From Minisyncoccia bacterium (GTDB lineage: Bacteria; Patescibacteriota; Minisyncoccia; Phycocordibacterales; PALSA-1337): DNA of 64,000 nucleotides. A program made the position numbers and the translations under genes. The notes under the pieces are model-generated. The model did not search any database. It saw only the letters and a program-made list of their open reading frames with translations, and was not told where the DNA came from. The stretch is from positions 1,766-65,765 of the forward strand of contig JBIIIW010000001.1 of NCBI GenBank assembly GCA_044234345.1, in the 5' to 3' direction. This document shows, piece by piece, positions 2,918-8,672 of the stretch (its first letter is position 1; every line of letters begins with the position of its first letter).

Positions 2918-3367
2918 ATGATTGAACTTACAACGGGCCTTGTGTTTCTAATGACTTCGCTATACGGAAACGCTAGTACTACCACAGACTCTGTGAATGT
3001 TCAGACATTGAGAGCTAATGTAGGGAATACAGCTTCTGTTGCAGCGAGTGATAGAGCAATCTTTGAAAAGTACGTTAGAGATCATTTTGCAGATACTCCA
3101 ATTCTAGCGGAGATTGCAAGATGTGAGTCGACATTTAGACAGTTCGACAAGAATGGAAATGTTATTAGAGGTTTAGTTGATAACGATGATATTGGTCTAA
3201 TGCAGATCAATGAAAGATATCACCTGGATACAGCTGAGAAGCTTGGTTATGATATCCATACACTAGAAGGGAACATGGCTTACGCTAAGTACCTATACGG
3301 TAAGTCTGGATCAAGACCATGGAATGCATCTAAGCCTTGTTGGGAGAAGACCCTGGCAGTGAAGTAA
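2918..3367 (+). CDS. small secreted lysozyme-like / lytic-transglycosylase-like protein (IagB/IpgF-type?)
   Basis: N-terminal signal-like hydrophobic stretch. IARCESTFRQFDKNGNVIRG...DIGLMQINERYH resembles the catalytic Glu-Ser and GLMQI motifs of goose-type/SLT-like lysozyme folds. Followed by an intrinsic terminator. Confidence 0.45.
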   Translation: MIELTTGLVFLMTSLYGNASTTTDSVNVQTLRANVGNTASVAASDRAIFEKYVRDHFADTPILAEIARCESTFRQFDKNGNVIRGLVDNDDIGLMQINERYHLDTAEKLGYDIHTLEGNMAYAKYLYGKSGSRPWNASKPCWEKTLAVK

Positions 3368-3441: not shown

Positions 3442-3942
3442 ATGTATAAAAAAATAATTATCTTAGCGTTTTTAATAGTAGTTCTCGTAGTGTTCCTGTC
3501 TGTATTTAAAAATCCTTCACATAAAACAGACGTTATAGATATTGATAATTCAATGAAAGATGAATGGTCGAGTCTACCCCCATATATCCTACAAGGAAAC
3601 TATTCAACATACTCATATATCAACGAGGGAATTGAATATATTCCAGAAATAGATCCGAAACCTGCTACTACAACTTGTCCAGTATTCATTGTTACGGATG
3701 GAGATGAAACTAATATATCAAGATATAAGAATATGGTTAATGAAGGTAATGCGGTAAATCACTTAAATGAGAAAGGTGAGTTGGTCATAAACATTGATCC
3801 TACTGACCTTCCATTAGAGCAACAAGAGTCTCTAATGAAATCAACTTCAACTGTATCCATATTGGTGAAGAATAAATTTTTGGATGGTAGAGATGCTAAT
3901 GCCTGTGAGAGTTTTATAAGTCTAGTTTCGATAGAGAAGTAA
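3442..3942 (+). CDS. hypothetical membrane-anchored protein
   Basis: 166-aa ORF with an N-terminal TM helix (IIILAFLIVVLVVFLSVF). No recognisable catalytic motif. Confidence 0.5.
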   Translation: MYKKIIILAFLIVVLVVFLSVFKNPSHKTDVIDIDNSMKDEWSSLPPYILQGNYSTYSYINEGIEYIPEIDPKPATTTCPVFIVTDGDETNISRYKNMVNEGNAVNHLNEKGELVINIDPTDLPLEQQESLMKSTSTVSILVKNKFLDGRDANACESFISLVSIEK

Positions 3943-3963
3943 ATAACCTGTGTATATATTAAT

Positions 3964-4278
3964 ATGAACCCTCCGATTATTAAAGGCTTCTACTATCACT
4001 ACAAGCATAATGCAGAAGGTGAGGTTAATAACTATGCATACGAAGTAACTGGCACAGGACTGCACACAGAGGATAGAACATATTTTGTTATATATCGCCC
4101 TCTATATGCAAACACCTTTCTAGGTTCAGCTGGATACTGTATACGCCCATACGAAATGTTTACAGGTAATGTTGAGATAAATGGAAAATCAGTGAAACGA
4201 TTTGAGAGAATTGAGGATGAAGGCCTCATTCTTAAGCTGAGTCAAATAAAGAGGGAAATGTATGGAGAGGATAAATAA
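3964..4278 (+). CDS. DUF1653-like small protein
   Basis: GFYYHYKHN...YEVTGTGLHTEDRTYFVIYRPLY...RPYEMF resembles the DUF1653 pattern (YRHYKG..YEV...HTE....VVYR.LY). Strong terminator downstream. Confidence 0.5.
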   Translation: MNPPIIKGFYYHYKHNAEGEVNNYAYEVTGTGLHTEDRTYFVIYRPLYANTFLGSAGYCIRPYEMFTGNVEINGKSVKRFERIEDEGLILKLSQIKREMYGEDK

Positions 4279-4284
4279 GTAGGA

Positions 4285-4306
4285 AAGCCGGCACGAGTGC
4301 CGGCTT
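4285..4306 (+). terminator. intrinsic terminator
   Basis: aagccggcacgagtgccggctt hairpin followed by cttt. Confidence 0.6.
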
Positions 4307-4479
4307 CTTTGATCTTCCTTATCCCTCGAGTTCGTCGAGTTTGATCTTAGGAATCTCTGTTCCTGCAATCAGTATTCTGAACGCTTCCAATGTGCCTGCA
4401 ACTGTTCCAGGTTCTCCAGGAACAATTTCATCAATAGGTTCTTCCATAAATGCGAGTAATTTGAGCTACGCCAAATACA

Positions 4480-4535
4480 TGTTACACCAAACGAAAGGGA
4501 AGAGGAATACCCTAAATTATCAATAAAATAGCTAT
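4480..4535 (+). repeat. left copy of an imperfect ~52-56-nt direct repeat (28-nt identical core aacgaaagggaagaggaataccctaaat at 4490..4517)
   Basis: Compared directly with 6178..6229: tgtta-N5-AACGAAAGGGAAGAGGAATACCCTAAAT-[tc]atc-ata..tagctat. Confidence 0.8.
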
Positions 4536-4654
4536 AGACATATCTTGACTTGTGTAGTCTAGTGTGGTACCTTTTGGCAGTATCAGTTAAGAGCCTGCGA
4601 GTGTAGGAATTCAAGACTGAAGTAATAGCACCTTAACAAAGAAAGGAACACGTC

Positions 4655-4966
4655 ATGTACAACGAGGACGAAGCAGTCGAACTCATTGGTTATCTGACTC
4701 GCTCCAAAGCGATCTGGATGAACCCAGAATTGCTCAACCTTGTTGAGTCTGCTCCTAGTCCCACGAAAGCATATGCTCTAGTACTTCAAAGTACTGGAAG
4801 CCAAAAGAAGGCTAAGGCTGGACGTTGGTATGCATGCGCAATTAGAGACTTCGGAAAAGACTCACTAGGTGCACTCACGGCAGTACTCAATTCTCCGCAA
4901 GGTGCGGTGAAATTGGAGGTATTGCTAACAACTACGTACCCCGGTTCACCCCGGAGGGACAAGTGA
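4655..4966 (+). CDS. hypothetical protein (GC-rich cassette gene 1)
   Basis: 103-aa ORF, about 47% GC against the ~34% background, directly followed by the next ORF (AGGAG RBS 7 nt before ATG 4977). Confidence 0.5.
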   Translation: MYNEDEAVELIGYLTRSKAIWMNPELLNLVESAPSPTKAYALVLQSTGSQKKAKAGRWYACAIRDFGKDSLGALTAVLNSPQGAVKLEVLLTTTYPGSPRRDK

Positions 4967-4976
4967 AGGAGATGGT

Positions 4977-6077
4977 ATGATTATCGCGAACATTCCGTTA
5001 GGTATACAACTCGGTGTGATGCTGTTATGCAGTGTAGCTGGTCTCTGGATATTCCACTATTGTGTGATTAGAGTGATCTTACAAGGAGGTCGTCCGCAAA
5101 ATGGTCCGCCAGAGAGTAGGGAAGAGAAATCAACAGAGGTTGCTTCAAAAACTTCGAAGATCCTGCTCGATGAGTTGAAGACAAGCCTGGTTAAGACTCT
5201 AAGAAAGCGTGACCGGGAAAGTCAATGTGATTCAGCGTTCTGGGCATCTTTTTCGCTTGTTGGAGAAAGCGAAGAGTTTGGTGTCGTGGTCTTAAGGGTA
5301 GACACTAACAACTATGGTTATCAAATAAGAACAGGTAACTTTAAAGATTCGAACGCTTGGGAAAATCTGGTAATAGCGACCCGAAAAGGATACTGCTTCC
5401 TTGGAAGAGTGAACCTCTACAAGGGTGCTGTGTATAACGGGCCGTTTCAGATTACAAAATCCGAAAGTGGATCAATTGTAGTTAGCTGGGGACAAGCTTC
5501 GTTCACTATTAAGGACGAGGAGATGAGAGGTGGTTATGATTTTCCATTCGAATTACCTCCGCGTTCTGAGATGGTAAGAACTGTCTACAACCTTAATGGT
5601 GCTATTGTCGTAATCGATGATGATCCAGGCCAAGGTCGGTATGTTCAGTTTTCGGTAGATCAAATGGGTAAGCGACTGAAAGCAGATCGCACAGTCTGGG
5701 ATTTACCGGGTTGCGTTAGGTGTGTCAAAGATGCAATTCAATATTTACCAGATTGTAGTGGTCGTCGTGAACAGGTTAGACTAGTCCTCGTTGACGGCAA
5801 CTTTAGCGGGGATGGAAGAGGTTTCAATACCGGTAGACTCATTCCTGTATTGCGCGAACGATACCCCAATGCACTCCTTTTCGCGAATAGTGGAATGGCT
5901 GAGAATCATACTAACCATACTCCCGAACTATTGGCAGCTGGTTGTGACTGTGCGCTCTCGATCGAAGATTATGGTTATAAGTCAAATCTGACTAAAATCC
6001 TAGCAAGAGTAGCCGAGCTCAAGCCGGAGATTCTTGTGAGTGAGGAACTTGACTTGAATGAAGTTCTAAAAATCTGA
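4977..6077 (+). CDS. hypothetical membrane-anchored protein (GC-rich cassette gene 2)
   Basis: 366 aa with an N-terminal TM helix (IPLGIQLGVMLLCSVAGLWIF). C-terminal region VLVDGNFSGDGRGFNTGRLIP...LLAAGCDCALSIEDYG is of unknown fold. Good RBS and terminator. Confidence 0.6.
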   Translation: MIIANIPLGIQLGVMLLCSVAGLWIFHYCVIRVILQGGRPQNGPPESREEKSTEVASKTSKILLDELKTSLVKTLRKRDRESQCDSAFWASFSLVGESEEFGVVVLRVDTNNYGYQIRTGNFKDSNAWENLVIATRKGYCFLGRVNLYKGAVYNGPFQITKSESGSIVVSWGQASFTIKDEEMRGGYDFPFELPPRSEMVRTVYNLNGAIVVIDDDPGQGRYVQFSVDQMGKRLKADRTVWDLPGCVRCVKDAIQYLPDCSGRREQVRLVLVDGNFSGDGRGFNTGRLIPVLRERYPNALLFANSGMAENHTNHTPELLAAGCDCALSIEDYGYKSNLTKILARVAELKPEILVSEELDLNEVLKI

Positions 6078-6085
6078 CATTACAA

Positions 6086-6111
6086 GCGGGCACTCTACCA
6101 AGGGTGCCCGC
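6086..6111 (+). terminator. intrinsic terminator
   Basis: gcgggcac-tctaccaagg-gtgcccgc hairpin followed by attttct. Confidence 0.7.
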
Positions 6112-6177
6112 ATTTTCTATACAAATATTGGTAAGTAAAACTAAATTAATAAATCAGCGTCATACCAGTACCTGTGG

Positions 6178-6229
6178 TGTTATTCAGAACGAAAGGGAAG
6201 AGGAATACCCTAAATCATCTATTAGCTAT
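6178..6229 (+). repeat. right copy of the direct repeat (core 6188..6215)
   Basis: See 4480..4535. Confidence 0.8.
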
Positions 6230-6610
6230 TCCCCGATATGTTTTAAAAAGAGTTGGCATGGATAACAGAGGAGAATGGAATATTAAATTAGTAATATAAA
6301 GATTATTATATTTCTCAATTAATTCCTTAATGTTTATTTAAAATATGAGCGATCAAGGTATCGATGGGCAAGTAGTAGTTAGCTTCCTTTCTCCTATAGA
6401 GACAACGTCGCACAATATACCTTTTACGATATAGATACACTATAAACCACTCCCCCGATTAAGCTAAAAAATCTGTAAGCGACACTCGCCTATTATTCTT
6501 TGTCATTAATTTAGTCTCTGTAATTAATTTTAAATAAATTTATTTCTAATAATTTATGTATACAAATATTTAAATTATTTTATAAAATTTGCCTCACTAT
6601 TGTTATCTTA

Positions 6611-7039
6611 TTGATATTTCCGTATTTAATGCTAGAATCAGCTCGGTTACAGCTAAAACACTTACATAGGTATTATCGTATGCCACAGATCATTGTTAGA
6701 TATAATCCGAAGCTGATTAGCCCGGATATGCTCAAGCATTTGGACTCAGTCTTTTCACCGGTAGTCGCCAATCTGGCAAGTGTAGCCAGTGGACCGATAT
6801 TTACCGCTAAGGACGTCGACTTTTTCACATACGCAAACGAAACCTCATCCAGATGCCCGGATCTTGCTATCGAGATACGGACAATTGGACATGCGGATAG
6901 AATCGAGTCTTTGAATCAGTCCGCGCAAATACTTGTCGATATTGTCGTAAAGGCATTGATTGTTAAGTGTGGTCTGAATATTCCGCCCCATGGATTCCTT
7001 TGGATCCAGGCAATTAGCCCAGCAGGTGTGCATGTCTAA
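6611..7039 (+). CDS. hypothetical protein, possibly tautomerase-superfamily-like if translation starts at MPQ (6677)
   Basis: Internal Met-Pro start MPQIIVRYNPKL... of about 120 aa is reminiscent of Pro1 tautomerase/CHMI-like proteins. GC-rich and followed by a strong terminator. No SD seen at either candidate start. Confidence 0.35.
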   Translation: MIFPYLMLESARLQLKHLHRYYRMPQIIVRYNPKLISPDMLKHLDSVFSPVVANLASVASGPIFTAKDVDFFTYANETSSRCPDLAIEIRTIGHADRIESLNQSAQILVDIVVKALIVKCGLNIPPHGFLWIQAISPAGVHV

Positions 7040-7063
7040 TGCCATCAGTCACATTCACAAATT

Positions 7064-7085
7064 CCCACGCGAGGCGTGGGTTTTT
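7064..7085 (+). terminator. intrinsic terminator
   Basis: cccacgcgaggcgtggg hairpin followed by ttttt. Confidence 0.65.
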
Positions 7086-7095
7086 CTTTGTATGG

Positions 7096-7371
7096 TTAAG
7101 AAAAAGCATCATTTTGTATGATGCTCGTTTCCCCCCTAATCTTTCCTGTAATTAATTTAACCCCAGGTTTCCAAATATATTCTATAAATACTTCTTTCCA
7201 AATAAATTTTGCTGGTTGTTCTAGATACTTGTTCCACACAAATGATACAACTTCCTTAATATACTCCAAATTAGACTGAGTTACAGGTGAATTTACAGAC
7301 TTACGTATATCTACACCTAGATTACCTAGTATGATGAGAGCTATGATACCTATAACAATCCATTTAACCAT
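7096..7371 (-). CDS. hypothetical small membrane protein
   Basis: 91 aa with an N-terminal TM helix (IVIGIIALIILGNLGV). Confidence 0.4.
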   Translation of the reverse strand: MVKWIVIGIIALIILGNLGVDIRKSVNSPVTQSNLEYIKEVVSFVWNKYLEQPAKFIWKEVFIEYIWKPGVKLITGKIRGETSIIQNDAFS

Positions 7372-7394
7372 AAGGTAATTATATCACAGACTAT

Positions 7395-8672
7395 TTACTT
7401 ATTAAGATATGAAAGTGGATTAAGGTAAGCCTTTAAATCAGCATAAGGGATAGTTACTTTAGAACATGCTGCACTATTAACGTTCTTTGTAATATTTAAT
7501 CCTTCCGTAGCATAAACTCCGAAGTGTAAGTGTGGACCAGTTGAGTATCCAGTATTACCACTGTATCCAATAACTTGGCCAGTATATACCTGCTGATCCA
7601 TTACTACATTTATTAGCGACAAGTGAGCGTATAGCGTTGATAGACCATTTGGATGCTTTATCATAATCCACTTACCAAACGATCTACATTTACCAACATC
7701 TGTATTGCCGGCACCAATAACAATTCCACTCAATGATGCTTTAACTGGCGTACCAATACTTGCTGCAAAATCTATACCAGTGTGACCCTTACCGTTATAT
7801 ACCTGAGGATTTGCCGTAGAGAATGCAGTATTACCGAAATATTGAGTAACTCTTATGTTATCAAGAGGATATTGAAGTATACCTTTACCAGTACTTGGTA
7901 GAAGGCTTGGATCAATAGCTATCTTTAGAGCAGACTCAAAAGCTAGCACTTCCCTCTCGTATTCCTCTTTTTGAGCTTTACGTAATGCAAGCAAACTATT
8001 GTAGCTCGACTCGGAGTTTCTCGTCTCTTTCAATAGGTCATTTTTTTGCTTAGCTGTGTCAGCAATAATTTTAGTTTGGTTCTTTAGATCATTGGTTAGT
8101 GATACCAACTCCAATCTTTTCTTTTCAGTAAGTTTCTTGTTTTCCTCCAGATTAGTCTTAAGGCTCTGTAGATCCTCAATCTTGTTCTGCATACTAGACT
8201 GTAATATAACTAATTGATCAGCATTCCTCCATAGATCAGAGAATGATGTCCTACCAAGTATAGCTTCTATTGCAGAGGCTGAATTAGCTTGATTGATATC
8301 ACTTAGTGATCTAGAGATAACTCGTCTACTATCAGATATTCTCTCACTCTTGTCTCCAATCTGTAGAGATAGCTCCTTAAGTTCAATATTTCTAGAAGCA
8401 ATCTTGTTCTCAGTAACCTTTATATCAGCCTCTAGCTTCTTCTTAGAGATATCTAGTGACTTAATTGTGTTACTAAGAGAATTCTTCTCCTTACCCAAAG
8501 CATCAATCTCCTTCTGGTATTTACTTATCTCCTGTTCTAGACCTTCGATGACATCATTCTTCTCTGCTATCTTACTTCTAAGATCATCAATAGATTGCGC
8601 ACTAGATATAGATGCACAGAGAATAAATATGATTGTTAAAGAAAATATTTTTTTAAAGTAATTCATATGCAA
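7395..8672 (-). CDS. M23-family peptidoglycan metalloendopeptidase with N-terminal coiled-coil (EnvC-like)
   Basis: Signal peptide, a long coiled-coil region, and a C-terminal LytM/M23 domain (GKGHTGIDFAA..GTPV...GNTGYSTGPHLHFGVY). Confidence 0.85.
   Translation of the reverse strand: MHMNYFKKIFSLTIIFILCASISSAQSIDDLRSKIAEKNDVIEGLEQEISKYQKEIDALGKEKNSLSNTIKSLDISKKKLEADIKVTENKIASRNIELKELSLQIGDKSERISDSRRVISRSLSDINQANSASAIEAILGRTSFSDLWRNADQLVILQSSMQNKIEDLQSLKTNLEENKKLTEKKRLELVSLTNDLKNQTKIIADTAKQKNDLLKETRNSESSYNSLLALRKAQKEEYEREVLAFESALKIAIDPSLLPSTGKGILQYPLDNIRVTQYFGNTAFSTANPQVYNGKGHTGIDFAASIGTPVKASLSGIVIGAGNTDVGKCRSFGKWIMIKHPNGLSTLYAHLSLINVVMDQQVYTGQVIGYSGNTGYSTGPHLHFGVYATEGLNITKNVNSAACSKVTIPYADLKAYLNPLSYLNK

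Follow-up and report, generated by a model that had tools for sequence, protein, structure and literature searches.

Cis-mobilizable elements (CIMEs) of streptococci carry attachment (att)-type repeats and no recombinase of their own, and morons are autonomous promoter-gene-terminator units located between the backbone genes of lambdoid phages. Integrative mobile elements exploiting Xer (IMEXs) reside at dif, with the CTX, VGJ and TLC phages and the gonococcal island as examples; filamentous phages are the classic members of the class. In two reports (PMC3191183, PMC5426353), the E. coli microcin H47 island represents small islands that have short flanking direct repeats and lack their own recombinase. 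The locus analyzed here has features in common with these systems. It lies in a stretch of 64,000 nucleotides (the window) from a Minisyncoccia bacterium (contig JBIIIW010000001.1, positions 1,766 to 65,765), where two copies of an imperfect direct repeat, R1 and R2, flank a two-gene unit called module 1 (open reading frames ORF103 and ORF366) and are followed by a one-gene unit, module 2 (ORF119). We conclude that the locus belongs to a known type of feature: a small island or moron, non-autonomous, that occupies a chromosomal slot of variable content. All coordinates are window positions, and L-numbers are fetched comparison loci: contigs with ORF366 homologs (L001–L007), contigs of the same species from other samples (L013, L014) and relatives with conserved slot flanks (L015–L019).

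The direct repeat and the module it flanks

The repeat is built around an exact 28-mer, AACGAAAGGGAAGAGGAATACCCTAAAT, present on the plus strand at 4490–4517 and 6188–6215. These were the only matches in the window when up to three mismatches were allowed, and shuffled sequences predict none. The ungapped repeat is 45 nt long and 87% identical (4480–4524 versus 6178–6222, with 1698 nt from start to start), and one 4-nt gap carries the alignment on to the heptamer TAGCTAT (4529–4535 and 6223–6229), in agreement with the extent of 52–56 nt given in an earlier note on this DNA. That the repeat is real, as claimed there, is clear from its local alignment score of 63, since the best of 1000 dinucleotide shuffles scored 33. 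All six mismatches in the 45-nt alignment fall outside the core (C(17,6)/C(45,6) = 0.0015 under uniform placement), and although this p of about 0.0015 applies to alignment ends that were picked after the fact, the identity block is sharply bounded, unlike that of a uniformly decayed duplication. The outer flanks of the two copies have no further similarity. R2 is identical in L013, an independent assembly that matches 5273–12121, R2 included, at 99.7% identity. Core copy number, a check suggested earlier, came to two in the 64-kb window; when genome, viral and metagenome contig collections were scanned for exact 20-mers and 22-mers, the scans, which did not return the window's own contig, found chance matches only (an Accumulibacter coding sequence, Akkermansia and one Syntrophobacterales contig).

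The sequence between the repeats recurs in other genomes. Nucleotide homology to the window covers 4535–6110 in L004 (81% identity) and 4586–6121 in L003 (74%), so that it opens at the promoter, includes the leader and both genes and ends just past the terminator, whose hairpin (6086–6111) has 11 pairs, 8 of them G-C. Because the homology spans promoter through terminator and stops there, module 1 (4535–6121) has the anatomy of an autonomous, moron-type module. The window, L003 and L004 have the same -35 box, while the -10 box reads TACCTT, TATACT and TAAACT, respectively; the degenerate box of the window leaves its promoter below the threshold of the consensus scan. Promoter and leader together (4535–4654) are 86% identical to those of L004. 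The small hairpin of the conserved 80-nt leader is CCTGCGAGTGTAGG in the window and CCTGCGTGTGCAGG in L003 and in L004, where it is found at about 2981–2994; with the form CCTGC-GNGT-GYAGG, it shows one pair changed from G-C (L003, L004) to G-U (window) among these three sequences.

The surroundings of the module differ from genome to genome. In L003 it sits between an OLD-family nuclease (PADLOC Old, 1e-66) and an NYN nuclease, and on the NYN side there are a tyrosine integrase, a rolling-circle Rep and a morphogenesis gene resembling that of M13 protein I; judged by this gene content, the L003 carrier is an inovirus-like integrative element. In L004 the module follows tRNA-Gly(CCC) at a distance of about 230 nt and precedes a phage-type regulator, and tRNA genes adjoin the ORF366 homologs of L001 and L007 as well. 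The GC content of the module is 0.45–0.50 against 0.37–0.40 for its flanks in the window, L003, L004, L005 and L006, and looks native only in L001 (0.47 throughout) and L007 (0.34). The proteins of module 1 were sought in INPHARED phages, PLSDB and IMG/VR, and none were found. From these sequence comparisons, the ORF103-ORF366 pair appears to travel between genomes as cargo of mobile elements. Horizontal acquisition, proposed in the earlier note, is borne out by the recurrence of the module at 81% and 74% identity in unrelated neighborhoods and by syntenic relatives that do not have it.

Several of these comparison loci show further structure. In L001, tRNA-Arg(CCT) (5836–5908) is located 190 nt downstream of the ORF366 homolog (394 amino acids), and its last 21 nt recur with 90% identity 418 nt further on (6307–6327); such a repeat of a tRNA 3' end is a classic signature of integration or its remnant. 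Just the last 32 codons of ORF103 are kept upstream of the ORF366 homolog in L001 and L002. In L007, a terminator-containing block (CCCCCAGCTACGGCTGGGTTTTTTT...) occurs three times (1–109, 517–625 and 2073–2126), with two perfect 109-nt copies. The blocks bracket a 94-amino-acid gene and the most distant ORF366 homolog (39% identity), with tRNA-Leu next at 2156–2240, and they could be a cassette-like array or an effect of assembly.

Composition also sets the inserted genes apart, to a lesser degree than previously reported. The segment between the repeats is richer in GC than the background, but the values are 0.448 versus 0.38 for the window rather than 47% versus 34%. Relative to a gene mean of 0.379 (sd 0.029), ORF103 has the highest GC content of any gene in the window (0.49, z 3.9); the values for ORF119 and ORF366 are 0.461 (z 2.8) and 0.444. 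The compositional contrast of the acquired genes is thus real but moderate. The genes, the terminators and a small minus-strand ORF of 42 amino acids (4319–4447) were all present as described earlier. Of the two ribosome-binding sites given as AGGAG, that of ORF366 is AGGAG and that of ORF103 is AAAGGAA.

The region that contains both modules is itself variable (Table 1). L015, L016–L018 and L019, whose M23 protein is 70–74% identical to that of the window, keep the order GluRS, M23, ORF91 homolog, slot, ORF149 homolog, L27, L9 and S41 protease. ORF149 has 61–64% amino-acid identity to the syntenic genes in L016–L019, and ORF91, which apparently forms an operon with the genes for the M23 peptidase and GluRS, has 51–59% identity to those in L015–L019. 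The slot of L019 is about 520 nt long with an uncalled GC-rich ORF of 78–85 amino acids, that of L016 holds one 271-amino-acid gene, and that of L015 holds a methyltransferase and a 172-amino-acid gene. None of ORF166, the DUF1653 gene, the small ORF, module 1 and ORF119 is represented in L015–L019; tblastn with the ORF166/DUF1653 stretch gave no match in these relatives, and the small minus-strand ORF has no homolog in any fetched locus. Because the flanks are conserved and the contents differ in each relative, 3442–7090 is a lineage-variable slot of a Patescibacteria (Paceibacteria-like) chromosome. The L019 slot ORF (11714–11971, plus strand, MNRILTKNHRVLTEIIYS...) is arginine-rich and matches DUF4777 with an E-value of 1e-4, below the Pfam threshold; it may bind DNA.

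A short element of about 20 nt containing GTCGCACAATATACCTTTT is the sole intergenic sequence common to the window (6402–6425) and its relatives at about 70% identity (L019, 11610–11633; L016, 11606–11627; L015, 7566–7592). Symmetry of the dif kind is missing from it, and in L019 it does not form an ORF. Its distance past the terminator of the ORF91 homolog is 17–60 nt in the relatives, whereas in the window it is about 670 nt from the ORF91 stop. Because the ORF119 module separates ORF91 from this element here and not in the relatives, ORF119 represents a second, independent insertion and does not belong to the same cassette as module 1. At least two expression modules of the moron type, each self-contained and acquired separately, are present in the slot. 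Across the ORF119 module from ORF91, the stretch at 6476–6530 (minus strand) may be a decayed duplicate of the ORF91 3' end; it has a 13-mer, AAATTAATTACAG, in common with 7096–7159, translates as KLIT... and includes a terminator-like hairpin at 6476–6492. It was considered as a target duplication of module 2 and set aside, not being significant alone (p about 0.08).

Table 1. Features of the slot and of the genes at its borders
Feature	Position	Strand	Remarks
ORF149	2918..3367	+	Weak SLT-like match (Pfam SLT, E 0.003); last conserved gene at left, left slot border
ORF166, DUF1653 gene and bidirectional terminator (4285–4306)	3442..4306	+	Slot content; DUF1653 E 2.7e-15
Acidic ORF of 42 amino acids	4319..4447	-	GC 0.434; short gene or remnant
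Left direct repeat, R1	4480..4535	+	Exact core 4490–4517; right end TAGCTAT touches module start
Module 1 promoter	4545..4573	+	TTGACT, 17 nt, TACCTT
Module 1 conserved 5' leader	4574..4654	+	Small hairpin 4594–4607
ORF103	4655..4966	+	Small protein without His; no family match
ORF366	4977..6077	+	Predicted N-terminal transmembrane helix, beta-rich middle and C-terminal receiver (CheY-like) domain
Module 1 terminator and T-run	6086..6121	+	Homology to L003 and L004 ends here
Spacer, 56 nt	6122..6177	+	AT-rich (GC 0.32); between module 1 end and R2
Right direct repeat, R2	6178..6229	+	Exact core 6188–6215
Backbone element with GTCGCACAATATACCTTTT	6402..6425	not assigned	blastn matches to L019, L016 and L015
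Module 2	6611..7090	+	Promoter 6611–6638, ORF119 6680–7039, terminator 7064–7080 and T-run
ORF91	7096..7371	-	First conserved gene at right, right slot border

The assemblies from three other samples of the species end within this region: L013 at 5273 and a 61-kb JGI contig at about 5660, both inside ORF366, and L014 at 6441, just right of the 6402–6425 element. These breaks suggest strain heterogeneity or a change of coverage across the acquired region. Farther along, the Pfam annotation of the matching JGI contig places a PemK-family toxin gene at 15424–15813 on the minus strand, amid ScpA/ScpB, FtsW and MurG.

Origin of the repeats

The reading we favor, with a confidence that is about evenly balanced, is that R1 and R2 are junction duplicates (attL/attR-like) of a single-crossover insertion. 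It is proposed because R1 ends at the module start, R2 begins 56 nt past the terminator and the core is perfect while the arms have diverged. A DNA circle with module 1 on it, or a larger element now decayed, would have entered the slot by a single crossover (Campbell-type) at a short sequence common to circle and slot. The 56-nt spacer, in which no homology to L003 or L004 was detected, and the inner repeat arms would then be the element's side of the site (the attP arm). The recombinase may have been supplied in trans or since lost, with an L003-like element as a possible source of integrase; a tyrosine integrase acting in trans and homologous recombination at a minimal identity block are both candidate agents. 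As it is now, the element would be non-autonomous, and recombination between the repeats could delete module 1. No integrase ORF lies between the repeats, and tblastn with the L003 integrase, the one query used, detected none in the window, in keeping with the earlier statement that none is present.

A number of observations weigh against this proposal. The 28-nt core is not found in any locus carrying the module, and the module is not flanked by direct repeats in L003 or L004, so that no attP is demonstrable. The dyad symmetry usual for the core sites of tyrosine recombinases is missing: a dyad scan (at least 8/11 arm matches) gave no candidate at the repeat, and the sole inverted element of the core is AGGG...CCCT, a 4-bp pair with a 10-nt spacer. 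An empty site with one repeat copy was not found among the relatives, because the slots of L015–L019 are too divergent between genes and can be aligned only over the 20-nt element. Within the species, the insertion is present in L013, L014 and the 61-kb JGI contig wherever they overlap it, with no presence/absence polymorphism. Finally, the compositional anomaly is only moderate. The att-like origin that the earlier note suggested is plausible in view of the position of R1 at the module edge and of the sharp identity block, but the module lacks the repeat elsewhere, the core lacks a dyad and no empty site was recovered.

Other arrangements of the same sequences were tried and rejected. When 4518–6215 is deleted such that the copies are joined, no ORF is restored on either strand, which speaks against disruption of a gene; the minus-strand ORF to the left of R1, earlier proposed as a gene remnant, may be a remnant or a short gene. 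Extended similarity between the repeat arms and the L003 and L004 flanks did not exceed that of shuffles. The right arm of R1 (4515–4537) forms a 23-nt inverted repeat, 83% complementary, with 6597–6619 just upstream of the ORF119 promoter; as candidate terminal inverted repeats, the two arms are of marginal significance in AT-rich DNA, since 8 of 300 shuffles reached the same score.

Next in order comes a local duplication that has nothing to do with the arrival of module 1, for example a relic of an older tandem or segmental duplication in the slot or of earlier cassette turnover, which we consider unlikely. The 28-nt block would owe its identity to gene conversion or to recency, and module 1 would have replaced the DNA in between. 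The repeat is indeed specific to the host slot and does not accompany the module elsewhere, the slot has turned over repeatedly in relatives, and L007 demonstrates that terminator-containing blocks of 34–109 nt can be reiterated around an ORF366 homolog. What local duplication leaves unexplained, however, is the coincidence that R1 ends exactly at the start of module homology. It also sits poorly with arms that have diverged, with an indel, around a perfect core, and with outer flanks that are dissimilar.

A weaker candidate still, which we rate as rather improbable, is a cis element that binds a protein and precedes two transcription units, such as an operator, an activator site or a UP-like element. 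Its appeal comes from the left copy of the core, which ends 27 nt upstream of the -35 box of a promoter whose degenerate -10 box (TACCTT) could need an activator, and from the three GAA-led hexamers in tandem that can be read directly in the core; a perfect core with diverged arms would fit a constrained site. There is even a weak promoter-like motif, TTGGCA-17-TGGAAT, 37 nt after the right copy, one helical turn further than at the left copy, but no protein-coding sequence follows it. The same promoter is present in L003 and L004 without the repeat and with a different shared motif, AATAGAGCC, upstream of it. The right copy lies past a strong terminator and about 400 nt before ORF119's own good promoter (TTGATA, 16 nt, TAGAAT, 10/12 consensus matches), and the repeat occurs just twice in 64 kb and nowhere in the collections searched.

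A structured RNA or leader element was set aside for related reasons, and the shared cis-regulatory RNA or operator that the earlier note had offered as its alternative is disfavored. R1 is upstream of the -35 box and R2 past the terminator, both copies fold on both strands no better than shuffles (z +0.3 to +1.0), and Rfam gave no match to the repeat at the gathering threshold or at an E-value of 1. An integron attC site or cassette was likewise discarded, as there is no hairpin on either strand, the module has its own promoter and no integrase was detected.

We attach little credence to the possibility that the slot is the replication terminus and the core an unconventional dif-like site, duplicated by an integrase-less element that exploits Xer recombination. 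The core is exactly 28 nt long, its element has no recombinase, a relative of the module sits in the inovirus-like element of L003, and the last five bases of the core, TAAAT, read directly, are those that end the XerD arm in E. coli. In the window, L016 and L019 alike, the maximum of cumulative GC skew falls at the slot. Between 7.1 and 64 kb almost every gene of the window is encoded on the minus strand, and these genes converge on plus-strand genes at 0.8–7 kb. In the window, the genes at 7.1–64 kb have strongly negative GC and AT skew, and this 57-kb minus-strand run ends at the slot. From the skew peak in the window and two relatives the slot may be the terminus, although the signal is confounded with coding strand and, left of the slot, rests on 6–10 kb only in all three sequences. 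The skew may simply follow the coding strand, and the orientation of the genes left of the slot in relatives is mixed (7 co-oriented, 5 not). The core itself matches the dif of E. coli or V. cholerae at 11 of 28 positions and that of B. subtilis at 9 of 28 and has no arm symmetry at a spacing of 6–8 nt, and scans of the window and relatives for dif similarity and dyads found nothing above chance. A dif site is normally kept among relatives, but the L015, L016 and L019 slots contain no similar sequence, and L003 has a tyrosine integrase of its own.

Least credible of all is a chance match or an artefact of metagenome assembly, since, even though the sequence is a metagenome assembly and the contigs of other samples end within ORF366 or at position 6441, not one of 100 shuffles gave even two matches, the alignment score far exceeds those of 1000/1000 shuffles, the independent L013 assembly reproduces the right part of the locus with R2, and a chimeric join predicts one shared copy, not two flanking copies. 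The single-crossover insertion remains the reading we prefer.

Proteins encoded by the two modules

ORF103 is the most conserved part of module 1, with 94% (L004) and 91% (L003) amino-acid identity. Most of the nucleotide differences in this gene fall at third codon positions (17 of 25 for L004 and 25 of 33 for L003), and on the strength of this pattern and the high protein identity it is a real gene under strong constraint. Searches of Pfam, NCBIfam, PADLOC, PHROGs and PDB returned nothing for it. ORF366 is less conserved (76% identity in L004 and 67–69% in L003) and very rare, with eight relatives among 5.8 billion protein clusters. No usable sequence match was obtained for it in Pfam, NCBIfam, PADLOC, PHROGs or PDB.

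The structure of ORF366 was modeled with AlphaFold2 from an alignment of those eight sequences, with a predicted local distance difference test score (pLDDT) of 78. The model has a transmembrane helix (residues 8–37), a beta-rich middle and a C-terminal alpha/beta domain (residues ~200–350). According to this model, the C-terminal third is a receiver (CheY-like) domain, its (beta-alpha)5 flavodoxin-like fold being closest to response regulators, and the protein is therefore not wholly of unknown fold, as had been thought. At the predicted strand ends, D214/D215 after beta-1, D273 ending beta-3 and S305 after beta-4 are invariant in the family and would fit a receiver active site. K335 is also invariant but comes ~7 residues later than expected, which makes the assignment of the beta-5 Lys uncertain. 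PF00072 was not matched in Pfam or NCBIfam even at an E-value of 10, and the PDB profile search was empty. On the model, ORF366 is a single-pass membrane protein whose receiver domain is probably phospho-accepting. We infer that this receiver-like domain is cytoplasmic and would be phosphorylated or otherwise switched, and that ORF103 would be its obligate partner. A role of the module in defense or exclusion, suggested by its place among the nuclease genes of L003, is speculation; PADLOC defense models at an E-value of 0.1 matched none of ORF103, ORF366 and ORF119, and only the L003 neighbor (Old, 1e-66).

ORF119, in module 2, begins with MPQ, which had led the earlier note to guess at a Pro1 tautomerase. 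A word-indexed search found no relatives, but exhaustive phmmer recovered 25 full-length homologs with 26–44% identity. In the resulting family alignment of 26 members, M1 and Arg74 are invariant, at least 90% of the sequences have P2, and further conserved residues are Trp108 and a His-Val at the C terminus. Pfam at an E-value of 1 gave no match for any of the 26 members, the family profile had no match among PDB sequences, and searches with ORF119 itself in Pfam, NCBIfam, PADLOC, PHROGs and PDB sequences gave no usable match. The structural model (pLDDT 86.6) has the order beta-alpha-beta-beta-alpha-beta, that is, a beta-alpha-beta block fused twice. The modeled fold and the key residue, the conserved Pro after Met1, support the guess: ORF119 is likely a divergent protein of the Pro1 tautomerase superfamily.

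Comparison with known systems

Mobile DNA and gene flow in Patescibacteria, or candidate phyla radiation (CPR) bacteria, are poorly charted. The locus is a clean, small chromosomal hot spot with turnover of promoter-to-terminator modules, one of which also occurs in an inovirus-like integrative element and at tRNA-adjacent sites. Two families escaped sequence models, the very rare ORF366-ORF103 pair and a divergent clade of the Pro1 tautomerase superfamily. Were the repeat a recombination site, it would open a way to study how DNA is inserted site-specifically in a lineage that has not been cultured. Were the dif reading true, the locus would offer a candidate-phyla equivalent of dif together with a minimal 1.7-kb hitch-hiking element related to inovirus-like cargo. 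As it stands, this is ordinary island biology, and novelty is limited to two uncharacterized protein families and the host lineage.

Long members of the tautomerase superfamily (~115–125 amino acids, with fused beta-alpha-beta units) include MIF, CHMI, cis-CaaD and fused 4-OT. ORF119 differs from them in having no match to the Pfam families (Tautomerase, CHMI, MIF, Tautomerase_2/3) or to PDB sequences, and in its conserved C-terminal His-Val and Trp108. Compared with receiver domains, ORF366 has no match to PF00072 and a beta-5 Lys off the expected position, and it adds an N-terminal membrane anchor and a beta-rich domain, with no recognizable output domain and no kinase gene nearby.

At the level of the locus, integron cassettes resemble it in being short one- or two-gene units between repeated sequences like recombination sites, but here both an attC-type hairpin and IntI are lacking, and the module is equipped with a promoter. 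With IMEXs at dif the locus shares the lack of its own recombinase, the 28-bp flanking sites, the link to filamentous phages and the switch of skew and orientation; it differs in that neither the sequence nor the symmetry of the core resembles dif and relatives do not conserve it, and the terminus location is putative. The recombinase-less islands and CIMEs are alike in having short cargo of atypical composition, imperfect repeats of tens of nt and no integrase inside, while the asymmetric core, the presence of the cargo module elsewhere without the repeat and the putative status of the att sites are particular to this locus. Finally, the modules here differ from morons in residing in a chromosomal slot, not in an intact prophage, and classical morons are not known to be flanked by direct repeats. 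The likeness to morons lies in the modules themselves: both come with a promoter and a terminator and deviate in GC content from their surroundings, and module 1 is also found in the inovirus-like element of L003.

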